NCBI GenBank assembly: GCA_963727625.1
Contig: CAVSHR010000002.1
Coordinates: 576,001 to 640,000, forward strand
Length of the DNA stretch: 64,000 bases
Source: an uncultured delta proteobacterium
GTDB taxonomy: Bacteria > Desulfobacterota > Binatia > UBA9968
Reading direction: 5' to 3'
Shown: positions 50,011-56,086 of the stretch, in pieces
Position numbering within the stretch: the stretch's first letter is position 1
How the letters are laid out: each line of letters starts with the position of its first letter
Notes under the pieces: model-generated
What the model was told of the DNA's origin: nothing
Databases searched by the model: none
What the model saw: only the letters and a program-made list of their open reading frames with translations
Position numbers and translations under genes: made by a program

Positions 50011-51141
50011 ATGGTCAATCAAAAAATCGCTCCGTTTCGCGCCAATCATGTCGGCAGTCTGTTGCGCCCGCCGGAGCTGCGTCAGGCACGGGAGAAGCGC
50101 GAGAAGGGCGAGATCAGCGCGGCGCAGTTGCGGGAAGTGGAGGATCGCTGCATCCGCGACGCCGTGAAGATGCAAGAAGACGTCGGCATGCAGGGCATCA
50201 CCGACGGGGAGTTTCGCCGAACCCTCTGGCATGCTGATTTTCTGAGCCAGATCGAAGGGGTGAAAGTTGTCGAAGGACTGCTGCCCGACTCGGCCAAACA
50301 TTTTCAAAATCCCGATGCCGACGTGCAGCGCTCGCCGACTCAATTCATCGTCACCGGTCCGCTGCGCCATCCGCGCGGCATCGAAGTCGACAATTTCAAA
50401 TTCCTCGCCTCGGTCACTAAACAGACGGCCAAGCAGTGTATCCCGTCGCCGTCGCTGGTGCATTTTCGGACGGGCCGGGCCGGCGTGGATAAGACGGCGT
50501 ATCCCAATATGAAGGACTTCTTCGCCGACCTGGCGCGAGTTTATCGCAAAGAGATCGCTCAACTTGCCCAGGCGGGCTGTACCTATCTGGAGATCGACGA
50601 TGTGAATTTTGCCTATCTCTGCGATCCCAAGATGCGTGAAGGGGCAAAGAAGATCGGCGAGGACCCGGACAAACTGCCGGCGCTGTATGCCGAGTTGATC
50701 AACGAATGCATCAAGGATCGCCCGGCGAACATGTCGGTATGCACGCACCTCTGCCGCGGTAATTTCCGCAGCTCCTGGGTCGCCGAAGGGGGCTACGATC
50801 CGGTCGCCGAAGTTTTGTTTAACGCTTTGAAGGTCGACGGTTATTTTTTGGAATTCGATACTCCACGCGCGGGAAACTTCGCGCCGCTGCGTTATTTGCC
50901 CAAAGACAAAAAGCTGATTCTGGGGCTGGTCACAACCAAGAGCGGGGAATTGGAAAAGGCCGACGATCTCAAACGGCGCATCGACGAGGCGAGCAAGCTC
51001 GTGCCCTTAGACCAGCTCGGCATCAGCCCGCAGTGTGGTTTTTCGAGCACGGTGTTGGGAAACAAGCTGACCATCGATGATGAAATCGCCAAGTTGAGAT
51101 TGATTGTCGATGTCGCACGCGATGTCTGGGGCTCGGTTTGA
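50011..51141 (+). CDS. Cobalamin-independent methionine synthase catalytic-domain family protein
   Basis: HVGSLLRP, TDGEFRR and the Zn-ligand motifs HLCRGN, LEFD and SPQCGF. Confidence 0.92.
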   Translation: MVNQKIAPFRANHVGSLLRPPELRQAREKREKGEISAAQLREVEDRCIRDAVKMQEDVGMQGITDGEFRRTLWHADFLSQIEGVKVVEGLLPDSAKHFQNPDADVQRSPTQFIVTGPLRHPRGIEVDNFKFLASVTKQTAKQCIPSPSLVHFRTGRAGVDKTAYPNMKDFFADLARVYRKEIAQLAQAGCTYLEIDDVNFAYLCDPKMREGAKKIGEDPDKLPALYAELINECIKDRPANMSVCTHLCRGNFRSSWVAEGGYDPVAEVLFNALKVDGYFLEFDTPRAGNFAPLRYLPKDKKLILGLVTTKSGELEKADDLKRRIDEASKLVPLDQLGISPQCGFSSTVLGNKLTIDDEIAKLRLIVDVARDVWGSV

Positions 51142-51198
51142 TTTGAATGCGGCTGCAGCGCGCTTATCGTCCCGTCATCCAAGGCCAAGGCTGGTAGT

Positions 51199-52260
51199 AT
51201 GGAATATCGCGGCGAGTTTTCGCTAAAGTTCGCGATTCAAACCGCCAGCCACTACACCGTGCCCGAGCTGGTTCGCTTTGCGACGCTCGCGCACGACGAA
51301 GGATTTAAACAGGTCTGGATCAACGACAATCTGGGCCAGCGAAATATTTTTGTCGTACTCGCTGCGATCGCAGCGCAGGTTCCGATCCAACTGGGAACGT
51401 CCATTGTCGTGCCGTATTTCCGCAACCCCGTGGACATCGCCGACAGTTTGGCGGCACTTTCCGAACTAACGGGCGGACGCGAGTTGAGCGTTGGCATCGC
51501 CCGCGGCGAACCTGCCCGCGCGGGATGTCAGATTGAGGTGCGAGAACCCCTGGCGATGGTACGCGAAGCGACGTTGGCGATAAGGGCTTTGACGGCTGGA
51601 GAGACGGTTTCCTTTCGCGATTTTCCGACCTGTGCCGCTTACCATCATATCCGTCCAGAACATCAGTTTCGTTTAGCATTTTCATCTGCTTCGCCGTTGC
51701 GCTTTTATTGCGGCGGGCATGGACCAAAAATACTGCGAGTCGCCGGGGAGATCATGGACGGGGTGTTGTTCGGCGATCACTTCATTCCGCTCGCTCGCGC
51801 CGGCCGCATCGGCTCGTTGTTAGCGATCGCGCGAAGCGCCGCTGGCGCCAAGCGGAAAGTATTGTTTGATGTCTGCGAGCTTGATATTTCAGTCGCGCGC
51901 GACCGCCAGCTCGCGATCGACTTCGCCCGTCCCTTTGCCGCGCAAGTTCTAATGAATTTGGCTTTGATGGGTTTCCCCCATGACAAATTTCATGCCCTCG
52001 GAATAGAGCCCAGCCTGGTACAATCGTTGGCAAATGCTTGTACGAGCCGCGCGACGGTTCACAGAGCATCGAAGCTTCTCCCAGACAGTGCCGTAACGAG
52101 TTGCTTTGTCGCGGGCGGCCCGGAGGAGTGTCGGGATCAATTGGCCGCATTGCTGGACGAAGCCGCGCAGCTCAACATCGGCCAGATCGCTTTTGCCAAG
52201 CTTGGCCCCGATTACAACGAAGCGATTACCCTGCTGCGTCGTGAAGTATTACCGAATTGA
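51199..52260 (+). CDS. LLM-class (Mer-like) flavin/F420-dependent oxidoreductase
   Basis: GFKQVW, LGTSIVVPYFRNP, LSELTGGR and GPKILRVAGEIMDG. Confidence 0.85.
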   Translation: MEYRGEFSLKFAIQTASHYTVPELVRFATLAHDEGFKQVWINDNLGQRNIFVVLAAIAAQVPIQLGTSIVVPYFRNPVDIADSLAALSELTGGRELSVGIARGEPARAGCQIEVREPLAMVREATLAIRALTAGETVSFRDFPTCAAYHHIRPEHQFRLAFSSASPLRFYCGGHGPKILRVAGEIMDGVLFGDHFIPLARAGRIGSLLAIARSAAGAKRKVLFDVCELDISVARDRQLAIDFARPFAAQVLMNLALMGFPHDKFHALGIEPSLVQSLANACTSRATVHRASKLLPDSAVTSCFVAGGPEECRDQLAALLDEAAQLNIGQIAFAKLGPDYNEAITLLRREVLPN

Positions 52261-52274
52261 CCCGCCTCGATAAT

Positions 52275-54098
52275 TTAGTCTTCTCCCAATGATTCGACGA
52301 GCGCCCGAATTGTCCTAAGTTGAAATAGACTGCTTAGGGAAACTATTAGGCCGTGTTTCACCTTGATTCGGCTAACGATCCGAGTCGCGTGCAGCGAATC
52401 CCCGCCAAGGTCAAGGAATGAATCGGTGGCGCCCACCTGATCGATTTCAAGGACTTCGGTCCAGATGGACGCCAGTTGCTGCTCCAACAAAGACCGCGGT
52501 GCAACATAGTCGTTGAGTAACGGCGGACGTTGCCGTCCTGGAGGTGGCAGTCGCTCATAATCAATTTTGAGATCCTTGGTGAGGGGCAGCTCTGCGATGA
52601 GGATAAAGGCCGTTGGAACGAGGTGTCCGGCGATTCTTTCGGACAAGGCTTCGCGCAATTGAGTAACCGTCACAATGCACCCGGCGTCGACAACGACGTA
52701 CGCACAGAGTCGGCGATCGCCAAATTCATCGGTATAATCACGCACGACGGTTTGGGATATTTCAGGCATACGCAACAAGGCTGTTTCAATTTCGCTCGAA
52801 TCGACGAATTCACCGGCAATACGGATGCGATGGTCCACTCTGCCAAGATGCGTCAGGCAGCCATCTGTGCTCAGGCTGCCTAAATCTTTAGTGCGGTAGC
52901 GGCGAACGCCGTCATAGTGTTCGACGAACCGTTCGGCCGATAACGCCGGATTGCGCCAATAACCCGTCGCGAGAAACTTGCTTTCGACTACAACTTCGCC
53001 GACGGACCCGGGCGCCAGCTCGTGTCCTCCATCGTCCGCGATACTTACGATCATATCCGGTACGGGATAGCCGGCCGGCACCGGCTCGCTCGATTCTAGC
53101 TGCGTTCGGTTATCGATGAAGAACTGGCGTACGAGTCCGCACTCTGTAGCACCGAGGCCGTTGACCAAGGTGCAATCATCGTTGAAGTTGGCTTTAAAGT
53201 GCTTGATATCCAGCGATGAGACGCGGTCTCCTTCGAGTCGCACCAGACGAATGGCAGGAAATCTGGTTGCCGGGTCCGATAGTTGCCGGAAGATCGAGGG
53301 CACGGCGTGGAAGACAGTCGCTCGTGAGTCACGCAGCCACTGCGAAATCTCCGGTAAGCTTTCGCTTCGGAGATCGTAAGGTGCGACTGTGGCGCCGTTG
53401 ACTAGCGCGCCGAACAAACTAGACACCGTGCCGCTGAAGCTCGGGTTCTGCACCAGACTCAGGGTGTCACTGGGCGCGAACCTCAGAGTGTTGGTATAGC
53501 GCATGACGTTGTGCAAGACGTTTCGATGCAAGTCCGCCACACCTTTGGGTGCGCCGGTGGACCCTGAGGTGTAAAAGACGTAGGCGCCGCTTTCCGGTGA
53601 CACCGGCTGATCGAGATTTTCGGAAGCGAACTCATCAAGACTTGTAACAGCGGTGATGACAGGAAAGCTGCCCAAGGCGTGATGGATCGAAGCATCGTGA
53701 CGTTCGATGTCCGCAATCAATGCGCAAGGTTCCAAATCTTCGATCATGCGTCGCAGAACGGAATATGGAAGCCGTTGATCCAGAGGCGCATAGGAAAACC
53801 CAGCTTTGAGAATCGCCATGGTCCAGACAATCGACACATAACCCTGGCTCATCAACATTGCGATCGGCCTTGTATCGCCGCGAACGGTGGCCAGCAGCCG
53901 GCGCGCGGCGCGATTGGCCGCAGCGTTGAGCTCGGCGTAGGCGATATCCGCGGATTGCAGCCTGACAGCGGGAGCATTGGGGCGGTGGCGCGCTTGTTGC
54001 TCAAAACGTCGATGGATCGGCTGCTCGCATTCGCCTGCGTCGAATGCCACAAACGTTTCTGGTACGCGCAGACTCTTTCTCGCCGCGAGATCCTTCAT
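52275..54098 (-). CDS. Stand-alone NRPS-like adenylation-thiolation (A-T) didomain protein
   Basis: YTSGSTGAPKG, GATE, YRTKDLG, GRVD..RIAG and the carrier motif LGGDSL. Confidence 0.9.
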   Translation of the reverse strand: MKDLAARKSLRVPETFVAFDAGECEQPIHRRFEQQARHRPNAPAVRLQSADIAYAELNAAANRAARRLLATVRGDTRPIAMLMSQGYVSIVWTMAILKAGFSYAPLDQRLPYSVLRRMIEDLEPCALIADIERHDASIHHALGSFPVITAVTSLDEFASENLDQPVSPESGAYVFYTSGSTGAPKGVADLHRNVLHNVMRYTNTLRFAPSDTLSLVQNPSFSGTVSSLFGALVNGATVAPYDLRSESLPEISQWLRDSRATVFHAVPSIFRQLSDPATRFPAIRLVRLEGDRVSSLDIKHFKANFNDDCTLVNGLGATECGLVRQFFIDNRTQLESSEPVPAGYPVPDMIVSIADDGGHELAPGSVGEVVVESKFLATGYWRNPALSAERFVEHYDGVRRYRTKDLGSLSTDGCLTHLGRVDHRIRIAGEFVDSSEIETALLRMPEISQTVVRDYTDEFGDRRLCAYVVVDAGCIVTVTQLREALSERIAGHLVPTAFILIAELPLTKDLKIDYERLPPPGRQRPPLLNDYVAPRSLLEQQLASIWTEVLEIDQVGATDSFLDLGGDSLHATRIVSRIKVKHGLIVSLSSLFQLRTIRALVESLGED

Positions 54099-54509
54099 GA
54101 TTGACGTCGATGGTTAGGCCGCTTGAAATGACCGCTTAGGAATTTGAACGGGAAATGTTTTTCACCCGTCGTAATGAACGGAAAAACTAGCGCTATCGAT
54201 GGTCCAGCCTCCCTAGACGTCAGCGCCCCGGTAGCCTATTGTAACAACGGAAAGGGCAACTCTGAAACAAATTTCGTTGCGGAAAGTAAGCGAGGGAACA
54301 AACGAAGTCAAACTGAGAATCACTGTAAGGTTTTGGGTGATTATTAAACTAAGAGCCAGAATCCTAGACCGGCTCGTGGACCTCACATGCAGTGTCTGTG
54401 GGGGTATTCGACCTTCGCAACTTTTTCCCATGCAAAGCTATCCTAGTAAGTGTACATCTGTATTCATGAACGCGTATTCTCGGTCCTAGGAGGCCGTAGA
54501 ACGGTGGCA

Positions 54510-55706
54510 ATGACGGAAACCATAGACGCTGCTCACGATTTTTCGGCTATTTCCCTTGAGGAAATAATCGCGCGTCTTGAAGACCGGGCGCTGGTCATTC
54601 TCAACGTCATGCCCAAGGAGACTTACGCAGACGGGCATATTCCTAGTTCCATCAATTTGCCAGTCGCTGAAATCGAAGCGAAGGCGCGGGCGCTGATTTC
54701 CAATCTCGCCCAAGAGATCGCTGTCTATTGCGCCGGGCCGACGTGACCCCTGGGCAAGCAGGCGGTGGGTCTGCTCCAAGGGCTGGGTTACACGAAGCTG
54801 CGCTACTACGTAGGCGGCATGGTGGAGTGGGTCGAACACAACGGCCCCATAGAGCGCACTGCTCCCTCAATCGCGGATAAGCCGGCAGTCGCGGCGCCGC
54901 GCCCCGGCGCCTCGCGCGGTTTTTCGTGGTTGGAGGTCCTTGCGAATTGGCCGCTGGATCGACTCGTCAGCTGCTGGCTCGGTATGATCGTCGTCTTTGG
55001 GTTGATTTACTGGCTTGCCGGAATCGGCATGGCTTCGGGGTTGCAGGCCGGCAACGTCGCCGTGATGCCGGACCTGAACGGCCTGGGCACGGCGATCTAT
55101 TTTAGCTTCGTTACCGCGCTCTCGATCGGCTACGGAGATGTGATTCCCGCCGGCGCGCTGCGCATTCTCGCGGTGATCGAAGGCATCGGCGGTTTGCTGA
55201 TCTTCGGCTGCGTGATTTCCAAGCTGGTTTCGCGCCGCCAGGAGGAATTGACGGAAGAAATCCATCGCACCACCTTCGAGGATCGGCTGGATCGGGTGCG
55301 GACCAATCTCCATTTGGTCTTTTCCGATCTCGGCGCGGTGCAGCAGCTGCAAGCGGAGCAGGGCGCTTTGGCCGGACCGGTGATGCGCCGGCTCGAGAGC
55401 ACCGTGCGGGTGTTTCGCGGCGAACTGCAAACCATCCACGACCTGCTCTACAGAGCACGCATAGAGGCGGACGAGGAAAGCCTGGAATCGCTGCTTGCCA
55501 ATCTAGTCATTTGTCTCCAAAGCCTGGTCGAGATCAATGCATCACGGCCGGCCGGCGACGGCCAAGCCGCGGCCCTCGACGCCGGTCTGCGCGCGGTCGG
55601 CAACTTGGCAAAGGAAATCTGCGGCGAGTGCGTGCCGCGGGTTTATGCGCCGGCGCTGAAGGAGTCGATGGATCAGATCCAAGATCTGGCACGCCGCTTC
55701 GCGTAA
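54510..55706 (+). CDS. Candidate selenoprotein: rhodanese domain (Sec at UGA 54744..54746) fused to a potassium-channel pore domain
   Basis: The two ORFs are in frame across TGA and give VYCAGPT-U-PLG..LGY..YYVGGMVEW, an intact rhodanese pattern. A SECIS-like hairpin follows. Pore motif YFSFVTALSIGYGD. Confidence 0.8.
54747..54782 (+). promoter_or_regulatory. Bacterial SECIS-like stem-loop
   Basis: AGCAGGC [GGTGG] GTCTGCT at 54757..54775. The G-starting loop begins 17 nt after the UGA; lower stem CCCTGG/CCAAGGG. Confidence 0.7.
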
Positions 55707-55780
55707 TGCCTGGCGGCGGCTTGAAGCGGCATGGTGCAGCCGTTATTAAGCATTGAAAACCGATCGATGGGAGGCAGCGT

Positions 55781-56086
55781 ATGAGAACGGCAATATAAAC
55801 ACTTTTACCAATGATTGCCCTGATGTGGATCCTTACCGGCTGTCAGGCGCTCACCGGGCAAACCCTCGGGGAGAACATCGACGACACGACGATCACCACC
55901 ACCGTGAAGGCGAAGCTTGCCGCGGAAAAAGGCTCAACACTAACGCGCATCGGGGTGGATACCAATCGGGGCGTGGTCCAATTGTCGGGCGTGGTGAGAT
56001 CAGCGGCCGACCGCAGTCTCGCCGAGCGGGTCGCGCGCGGCGTCAGCGGGGTCAAAAGCGTGGTCAATAATCTACAAATCCAATAA
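55781..56086 (+). CDS. BON domain lipoprotein (in-frame TAA at codon 6 from the RBS-supported start)
   Basis: Lipobox LTGC; DDTTITTTVKAKL..IGVDT..GVVQLSG..GVKSVVNNL. Confidence 0.85.

Follow-up and report, generated by a model that had tools for sequence, protein, structure and literature searches.

A widespread rhodanese–potassium channel fusion very probably carrying selenocysteine in its rhodanese active-site loop

Introduction

Does the TGA triplet at codon 79 of a bacterial reading frame close one gene ahead of another, or does it encode selenocysteine (Sec) within a single gene? The question is raised by nucleotides 54510-55706 of a 64,000-nucleotide stretch of DNA (the window, to which all coordinates refer unless a contig is named) from an uncultured delta proteobacterium with a 6.6-Mb assembly of 15 contigs, in which the window is C2:576001-640000. 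An earlier reading of the letters alone (the original prediction) had proposed that the TGA at 54744 splits a rhodanese domain in its active-site loop, that the frame continues into a two-transmembrane (two-TM) pore with the filter SIGYGD to give a 398-residue CxxxxU protein, that a 7-bp stem with a loop starting with G, 10 nt past the UGA, could serve as a Sec insertion sequence (SECIS), and that standard gene callers would split the gene in two.

To our knowledge, nearly all selenoproteins described from prokaryotes are soluble enzymes of redox chemistry, apart from a few transporter subunits. A literature search returned no paper on a selenoprotein K+ or other ion channel, or on a fusion of a rhodanese to a K+ channel, in agreement with the earlier statement that no characterised selenoprotein ion channel is known; supplementary survey tables could list such a family. 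The main text of a 2026 review covering more than 110 selenoprotein families (PMC13188914) is without the terms 'channel', 'potassium', 'ion transport', 'PF07885' and 'CxxxxU'. Here we present comparative evidence which makes it very likely that 54510-55706 is one gene, and that its UGA-79 is decoded as Sec by SelA, SelB, SelD and tRNA-Sec under the direction of a SECIS 10 nt downstream.

Results

The reading frame and its annotation

Read directly, the frame from the ATG at 54510 to the TAA at 55704-55706 contains one in-frame TGA, at codon 79 (Table 1). The readthrough product has 398 residues and runs ...IAVYCAGPT-U-PLGKQAVGLLQGLGYTKLRYYVGGMVEW... and then ...TALSIGYGDV.... Since the Pfam Rhodanese match spans residues 16-109, the TGA lies inside the domain, as had been proposed, and the predicted continuation of the frame into a two-TM pore is seen in a match to Pfam Ion_trans_2 (PF07885) at residues 170-241 (46 bits against a cut-off of 22.5, E-value (E) 4.9e-12).

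Table 1. Features of the gene and of its surroundings in the window. pLDDT, predicted local distance difference test score; pTM, predicted template modelling score; VIA, a structure search.
Feature	Position	Strand	Basis and remarks
Predicted coding sequence of the 398-residue selenoprotein	54510..55706	+	Rhodanese, linker, two-TM K+ pore, helical C-terminal domain; orthologues collinear over query residues 3-398
Rhodanese domain, residues 16-109, split by the TGA	54555..54836	+	Pfam PF00581, 54.4 bits against a cut-off of 22.2, E 1.9e-14
TGC, Cys74, rhodanese catalytic cysteine	54729..54731	+	Invariant in 53 aligned sequences; pairs with the Cys of CAGRTRS in 1yt8 domain 2
In-frame TGA, codon 79, predicted selenocysteine, motif C74-AGPT-U79	54744..54746	+	TGA in 73 and TGC in 6 of 79 loci; unchanged in 11/11 close orthologues
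SECIS-like hairpin	54757..54775	+	7-bp stem, 54757-54763 (5' arm AGCAGGC) with 54769-54775 (3' arm GUCUGCU); 5-nt loop GGUGG, 54764-54768
GTG, Val86 inside the hairpin loop, false start chosen by gene callers	54765..54767	+	313-aa 'potassium channel' open reading frame P0152; codon varies in orthologues
Flexible, poorly conserved linker, about residues 111-139	54840..54926	+	pLDDT <50 at 121-131; fastest-evolving at all three codon positions
Short interfacial helix (140-145), then TM1 (149-174)	54927..55031	+	AlphaFold model; VIA alignment to KirBac3.1
Pore-helix end and selectivity filter, T202-A-L-S-I-G-Y-G-D210	55113..55139	+	Direct read, Pfam; G[YF]GD in 73/74 loci
TM2 as one unbroken helix (217-284) into the C-terminal domain; most conserved stretch ISKLVSRRQEELTEEIHRTTFEDRLDRVRTNLHLV	55158..55361	+	Model, alignments
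Helical C-terminal domain, residues 243-398, five helices	55236..55703	+	Model pLDDT 89.7, pTM 0.85
C371-G-E-C374, conserved CxxC on the loop joining the two final helices	55620..55631	+	53 sequences: C371 invariant, C374 at least 90%
AGGAGG, possible ribosome-binding site, weak assignment	54488..54493	+	Direct read
Small BON-domain protein with a lipoprotein-like N-terminus	55811-56086	+	E 1.7e-19; 105 nt downstream of the channel gene
Stand-alone adenylation and carrier-protein enzyme (AMP-binding, AMP-binding_C, PP-binding)	52275-54098	opposite	Upstream of the channel gene
Luciferase-like monooxygenase	51199-52260		Adjoins the adenylation enzyme
Cobalamin-independent methionine-synthase-like gene	50011-51141		Beside the adenylation enzyme, as is the luciferase-like monooxygenase

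Gene callers do split the gene, since the protein called in the window (P0152, 313 aa) begins at the GTG inside the hairpin loop. This triplet is GTC, GTT or GGN in many orthologues and is thus not a conserved initiation codon. The best 120 database matches (in a 90%-identity collection) are all 295-321 aa long, cover 74-80% of the query and start after the TGA; where they are named, it is as 'potassium channel LctB', 'ion channel' or 'hypothetical protein'. Among 88 database representatives at E <= 1e-30, 39 start, with their own residue 1-3, at query residue 81-100, just past the TGA. Protein databases cannot hold read-through forms, and N-terminal fragments are also deposited (for example P0136, 80 aa). 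A promoter and terminator scan gave no signal exceeding shuffle level, and a sequencing-run search listed no RNA run with the gene; the runs listed were of DNA, with small shares of 0.08-0.15.

Conservation of the TGA codon

The read-through protein was used for a six-frame search of 61 related genomes (the same order, own genome included). Orthologues with 54-77% identity, collinear over nearly full length, were found in 12 of them, 11 in the genus of the window (own genome included) and one in another genus of the family; one of the 12 genomes, G035, is unpublished. Fragments were present in a few more. Each orthologue match holds exactly one TGA, and in 12/12 it falls in the same column, YC[AG]xxT-*-PLG, where the asterisk stands for the TGA.

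When one genome from each of 185,579 species was scanned with a pattern, 107 relatives came back; 80 loci were retained, some of which are among the 12 orthologues. The kept loci come from Binatia, 'Deltaproteobacteria', Acidobacteriota, Methylomirabilota, Eisenbacteria, Krumholzibacteriia, Gemmatales, Gemmatimonas and Xenobia. With the window's own locus, 81 were examined, and 79 of these cover the TGA column. It can be seen from Table 1 that no codon other than TGA and TGC occurs there. Recurrence of the TGA at one column, both here and in the 12 orthologues, lies well outside what chance would give. In a tree of the family, a Cys clade (L087/L090/L099) is nested within a Sec clade with a support of 100. 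Full-length homologues in the databases (n = 14) have Cys at this column in 12 cases, Gly in one and Ser in one.

PMC1088965 defines selenoprotein genes by an in-frame TGA, Cys homologues and a SECIS-like hairpin, and asks of the homologues that at least two have Cys aligned to the TGA and that more than half have TGA or Cys. Here, six TGC loci and 12 of 14 database proteins have Cys at the column, and all 79 loci have one of the two codons. As far as sequence can tell, this is the classical Sec/Cys pattern that defines selenoprotein families (cf. PMC1088965). The original prediction had expected homologues to have Cys or TGA at this column and the fusion to be conserved; the codon counts follow this expectation, and a rhodanese-channel fusion is found in 79/79 loci covering the column.

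The flanks of the TGA are conserved as coding sequence. Eleven loci with at least 60% identity were each compared with the window, and the substitutions per site at codon positions 1/2/3 were 0.265/0.160/0.541 for codons 20-78 and 0.258/0.132/0.481 for codons 80-110, so that on either side of the TGA most change is at third positions. Codons 80-85, which precede the annotated GTG, gave 0.182/0.030/0.333. Reads placed on the gene yielded short contigs only, covering a minor part of it. One of these, a 183-nt soil-metagenome contig from run X2, covers 54616-54776 with 22 differences and leaves 54744-54746 unchanged; all 12 differences listed upstream of the TGA are at third codon positions. Whether reads would show TGC or TGT had been raised earlier, and this independent contig retains TGA.

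A hairpin downstream of the TGA

The 7-bp stem of the original prediction, with its loop starting with G, is present at 54757-54775 and begins 10 nt past the UGA. Pairing across the family was measured in a fixed register, +14..+20 with +26..+32, counted from the T of the TGA. In the 73 TGA loci, seven pairs form in 39, six in 26, five in 5 and four in 3 (mean 6.4). For the six TGC loci the counts are 5, 5, 4, 3, 3 and 3 (mean 3.8), that is, the pairing is lost. Among 72 distinct TGA-form segments, standard pairs make up 91.1% of 504 cells, and sliding the 3' partner by 1-3 columns lowers this fraction to 26-47%. All four third-codon positions within the stem (columns 15, 18, 27 and 30) are at least 90% conserved, against none of the nine others in columns 4-42. 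The loop has G at its second position in 73/73 TGA loci and the form N-G-U-N-N in 67/73.

This pattern of conservation is, at the level of sequence, the look of selection on an RNA helix overlying coding sequence. Such selection would also explain why the peptide '[QR]AV[GR]LL' is highly constant in Sec forms and lost in Cys forms. The hairpin lies just past the UGA and has a small apical loop with a G; its distance from the UGA and its loop G agree with the bacterial SECIS elements described in PMC1088965. The SECIS search that the original prediction called for gave a conserved hairpin at the right distance and with the loop G, and no match to an Rfam model. The one SECIS row in the Rfam output (SECIS_2, 55561-55609) was dismissed as chance, with 18.4 bits against a gathering score of 70 and an E of 3.1.

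Selenocysteine machinery

All four components of Sec insertion sought in this genome are present. A lack of this machinery had been named as an outcome that would refute the original prediction; this point and the other refuting outcomes named with it turned out in favour of the prediction. Contig C5 carries selA (E 4.1e-158), selB, found through its winged-helix domain (E 1.2e-20), and selD (E 1.4e-112) in one cluster at C5:715340-719566, and a tRNA-SeC with the anticodon TCA lies about 50 kb away (C5:768830-768924, ARAGORN). The selD gene is itself of the Sec type, with an in-frame TGA at C5:718570 (...VKAAG-U-AAKLGP...).

SelA is found in 59/61 genomes of the order, own genome included, and a strong match in 11 of the 12 related genomes with an orthologue. 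Outside the order, the TGA-form genomes holding L043, L047, L050, L084 and L100 have SelA in 5/5 cases. The Cys-form genomes examined also have a SelA match in 5/5, intact in four. In the remaining one, which holds L061 (G066, C12:283523-284537), the SelA match is in four pieces in different frames; this may be a Sec trait that decayed alongside a change from Sec to Cys, or the result of indel errors in the assembly.

A second rhodanese with an in-frame TGA occurs in the same genome at C9:51470-51790, here at the catalytic position (...RPVVLY-U-ACPHHLASL...). It has a signal-peptide-like N-terminus, and a GGCCA/UGGCC hairpin begins 20 nt past its UGA; it is likely to be a rhodanese selenoprotein of the periplasm. 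Related genomes gave many comparable matches to small rhodaneses, with one TGA each.

The rhodanese active-site loop

Assignment of the N-terminal domain to the rhodaneses rests on a profile match above cut-off, the presence of the catalytic Cys and a fold match with a Z of 17.4; the best structural matches were 3nhv (Z 17.4), 3gk5 (Z 16.6) and GlpE (Z 15.3). The local motif is Y-C74-A-G-P-T-U79-P-L-G. When aligned to domain 2 of a Pseudomonas thiosulfate sulfurtransferase (1yt8), U79 pairs with the last residue of the six-residue loop, which places the TGA at +5 from the catalytic Cys74 and not at the catalytic position. The original prediction had put the TGA in the active-site loop, and the place of the predicted Sec is now refined to the last loop residue. 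In classical rhodaneses this last position is Arg or Thr. No NCBIfam model reached its cut-off; seleno_TsoB (NF045694) scored 23 against 805 and rhodanese_LYCAU (NF041203) 23 against 115.

Pore, linker and C-terminal domain

A full-length AlphaFold2 model built from 53 sequences (mean pLDDT 90.5, pTM 0.59) has an alpha/beta rhodanese domain at residues 11-110. The linker that follows has substitution rates of 0.54/0.43/0.73 at the three codon positions. In the pore, the model places a pore helix at 189-204 and the filter S205-I-G-Y-G-D210 after it. A profile match above cut-off and a GYG-type filter between two TM helices together mark this region as a K+ type pore, and in a VIA structure search with model residues 145-244 the matches included KirBac3.1 (Z 11.3 over 90 residues) and Kv4.3 (Z 10.9).

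The C-terminal domain was also folded alone, from 58 sequences. VIA gave a best Z of 10.8 with unrelated helical proteins throughout the list, and there was no Foldseek match at E <= 0.001 and no Pfam match. The modelled domain thus appears to be without a recognisable fold relative, which does not show that the fold is new. Its CxxC is present in 69 of 74 loci and is CxxS in the other five.

Seven relatives of 244-291 aa (P0053, P0056, P0061, P0064, P0065, P0068 and P0074) consist only of the two-TM pore and the CxxC helical domain. Their starting Met lies immediately ahead of TM1, and in the tree they are scattered among the rhodanese-bearing forms instead of grouping together; their existence indicates that the rhodanese is an added module. 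Two Cys-form relatives, P0019 (565 aa) and P0013 (455 aa), have a rhodanese, a degenerate pore, the helical domain and a C-terminal AhpC/TSA peroxiredoxin extension (E 2.8e-25 in P0019; P0013 carries its beginning). The filter of this clade is SSSYGD or SASYGD, and there is no Pfam Ion_trans_2 match. The extension ties the family to thiol-peroxide chemistry.

Distribution and neighbouring genes

The nearest homologues are from Candidatus Binatia. The gene is patchy in its own order, as seen in the genome counts above, yet it occurs in many phyla, and its tree mixes taxa, which suggests, from sequence comparison, an accessory and horizontally moving gene.

An operon was considered and dropped: when the flanking open reading frames of the 81 loci were clustered, no widespread shared neighbour emerged. 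A FAD (flavin adenine dinucleotide)-binding monooxygenase-like open reading frame with the motif GGGPAG lies upstream on the opposite strand in 21 of the 81 loci (L043 and 20 others of L027-L106); the window is not one of them. Neighbouring genes in the window encode an AMP-binding/PP-binding enzyme, a BON-domain protein, an NMT1-type binding protein and an MFS transporter; of the 80 other loci, only 4 have the BON gene after that of the channel. The genes at 50011-54098 may form a small natural-product or activation cluster.

Discussion

Taken together, the comparative evidence gives us high confidence that the gene is continuous, that its TGA is a conserved coding position alternating only with Cys, that the hairpin is under selection and that the architecture is conserved across phyla. 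The interpretation as a selenoprotein, which these comparisons of sequence strongly support, describes what is very probably a widespread and unannotated CxxxxU protein. From N- to C-terminus it would consist of a single-domain rhodanese whose loop C74-A-G-P-T-U79 has Sec at its last position, a linker, flexible and about 30 residues long, a two-TM K+ pore of the KcsA/Kir type with the filter SIGYGD, and a five-helix domain with a conserved CxxC, which the inner helix would enter unbroken. We infer that the rhodanese and the C-terminal domain are both cytoplasmic; K+ selectivity is likewise predicted, and the Sec loop may be linked to the CxxC.

What might such a protein do? In rhodaneses the loop surrounds the catalytic Cys, the residue that bears the persulfide; Sec surpasses Cys both as a nucleophile and as a leaving group; and the gate of two-TM K+ channels is formed by the bundle of inner helices. 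Gating of K+ flux by redox state or sulfane sulfur is therefore plausible as judged from the domain content, and we tentatively propose that the Cys/Sec pair is a fast redox or sulfane-sulfur switch acting on the C-terminal gate assembly, an idea we hold at somewhat less than an even chance. In this mechanism Cys74 would be oxidised or persulfidated, and Sec79 would then resolve it to form a selenenylsulfide; docking of the tethered rhodanese on the gate assembly with its CxxC, or exchange between the two, would alter the open probability, so that K+ flux would respond to oxidants or reactive sulfur species. Stated in full, the proposal is that this is the first Sec-using ion channel, a K+ channel family widespread in lineages from soil and sediment (Binatia-like, Acidobacteriota, Methylomirabilota and others), in which gating would be under the control of a tethered rhodanese whose Cys-x4-Sec loop would be a fast, reversible sensor of peroxide or sulfane sulfur signalling to the CxxC gate domain; in this complete form it is more speculative still.

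The protein might also be a genuine selenoprotein in which the rhodanese is not a gating sensor. It could instead be a membrane-tethered enzyme, such as a sulfur or selenium transferase or a reductase that keeps the CxxC reduced, or the pore could fail to be K+ selective, or to conduct, in vivo. The long, disordered and poorly conserved linker suits a tethered enzyme as well as a sensor, the proteins without a rhodanese indicate that the pore and C-terminal core works alone, and the peroxiredoxin-fused clade has a degenerate filter. Conservation of the fusion in every locus covering the column, and of G[YF]GD in 73 of 74 loci, argues instead for a functional link between the modules and for a filter of the K+ type. 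We regard the alternative as somewhat unlikely.

Several observations weigh against the selenoprotein interpretation itself, or against parts of it. The hairpin is thermodynamically ordinary: a 67-nt segment folds at -20.0 kcal/mol against a shuffle mean of -23.6 (z-score +1.29), 184 of 200 shuffles fold at least as stably, and stability alone is thus not significant. Changes on both sides of a pair are found in only 3 of the 504 cells (for example CAA/UUG in L029 and L034), and with so few compensatory changes the RNA evidence rests on conservation and on the contrast between TGA and TGC loci. In Rfam (E <= 10, 54000-56000) no SECIS model matches at the site; Rfam's bacterial SECIS models cover particular genes or clades, and the missing match therefore weighs little. 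The six TGC loci represent only about three lineages, and two homologues have Gly or Ser at the column, so that the fold can do without this residue. The candidate ribosome-binding site lies 16 nt before the ATG, a long spacing, and in G009 (93% complete, 670 contigs), one of the genomes with an orthologue, the sole SelA-like match is weak. A pTM of 0.59 for the whole model means that it does not predict where the rhodanese sits against the other domains.

Some of these points would also suit readthrough of the UGA without Sec, in which near-cognate or suppressor decoding, promoted by the hairpin that follows, would insert Trp, Cys or Gly. Hairpins directly behind stop codons can in general promote readthrough, and an element which is thermodynamically ordinary and matched by no Rfam SECIS model could be of this kind. 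However, Cys codons alone stand in place of the TGA in DNA (6/6), which is the mark of Sec/Cys exchange; the genome has the complete Sec machinery; a paralogous rhodanese and the selD of the same genome also have in-frame TGAs; and the UGA distance and apical-loop G fit the bacterial SECIS elements of PMC1088965. Decoding without Sec is accordingly very improbable. Least credible of all is a true stop, leaving two genes or a decayed gene with a 78-residue rhodanese fragment and a K+ channel started at GTG 54765 or another internal site, which is how gene callers read P0152 and the best 120 database calls, which is matched by fragments such as P0136, and which would use the normal stop of the clade (TGA ends 8/10 orthologues read to their stop), yet which would cut the rhodanese fold in its active-site loop while both halves are under purifying selection in one frame, with the TGA fixed at one column in 73 loci of several phyla and Cys its sole alternative, the supposed start not conserved, residues 80-85 before it conserved as protein, and the Cys forms read as single full-length proteins.

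Returning to the selenoprotein interpretation, the family is new by the usual computational criteria applied to sequence and is apparently the first selenoprotein family that is an ion channel. If this is true, a Sec-bearing K+ channel widens the use of selenium from catalysis to membrane signalling, and the occurrence of Sec-form and Cys-form channels side by side offers a natural system for asking why Sec is preferred. The annotation error also has consequences, as the best 120 database matches are without the rhodanese half and domain-based surveys miss the fusion entirely. The conserved C-terminal domain is worth solving structurally.

Among known systems, the glutathione-gated K+ efflux system Kef (KefC/KefF of E. 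coli), which is of the CPA2 antiporter type with KTN domains, and Kv-beta, a redox-sensing aldo-keto reductase, are similar by analogy only: a cytoplasmic sensor domain links K+ flux to the state of thiols, electrophiles or redox, but the folds are unrelated and there is neither selenium nor a rhodanese. The pore itself resembles KcsA and KirBac in its TM1, pore helix, GYGD filter, TM2, cytoplasmic termini and helical extension below the gate, with sequence matches to KcsA at E 0.002-0.009. It differs in that Ser-Ile or Ser-Val precedes GYG in the filter, and in that KcsA has a pH sensor and a C-terminal bundle, and Kir an Ig-like domain, in place of which the present protein has the rhodanese and the five-helix domain with the CxxC.

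For the rhodanese, the best structural match and one of the best sequence matches is BH2092 of Bacillus halodurans (3nhv, 3o3w; residues 26-123, E 2.1e-8, Z 17.4), whose motif YCWGPAC has Cys at both the catalytic and the +5 columns. It is a soluble, stand-alone structural-genomics rhodanese of about 140 residues, with Cys instead of Sec. The existence of rhodanese-like selenoproteins, on which the original prediction had drawn, is documented in a table of PMC13188914, where five forms appear: UxxS, UxxG, CxU, a further UxxG, and UxxxxU in the rhodanese/DsbD fusion-like TsoB. These share with the present protein a single rhodanese domain, Sec in or beside the active-site loop and an origin in Sec-using bacteria, and TsoB is also a membrane-protein fusion with, judged by the motif given there, its second Sec at the same +5 spacing. 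In contrast to the forms given there, the protein described here would keep the catalytic Cys and have Sec only at +5, in a CxxxxU arrangement not among the five, and its fusion partner is a predicted K+ channel.

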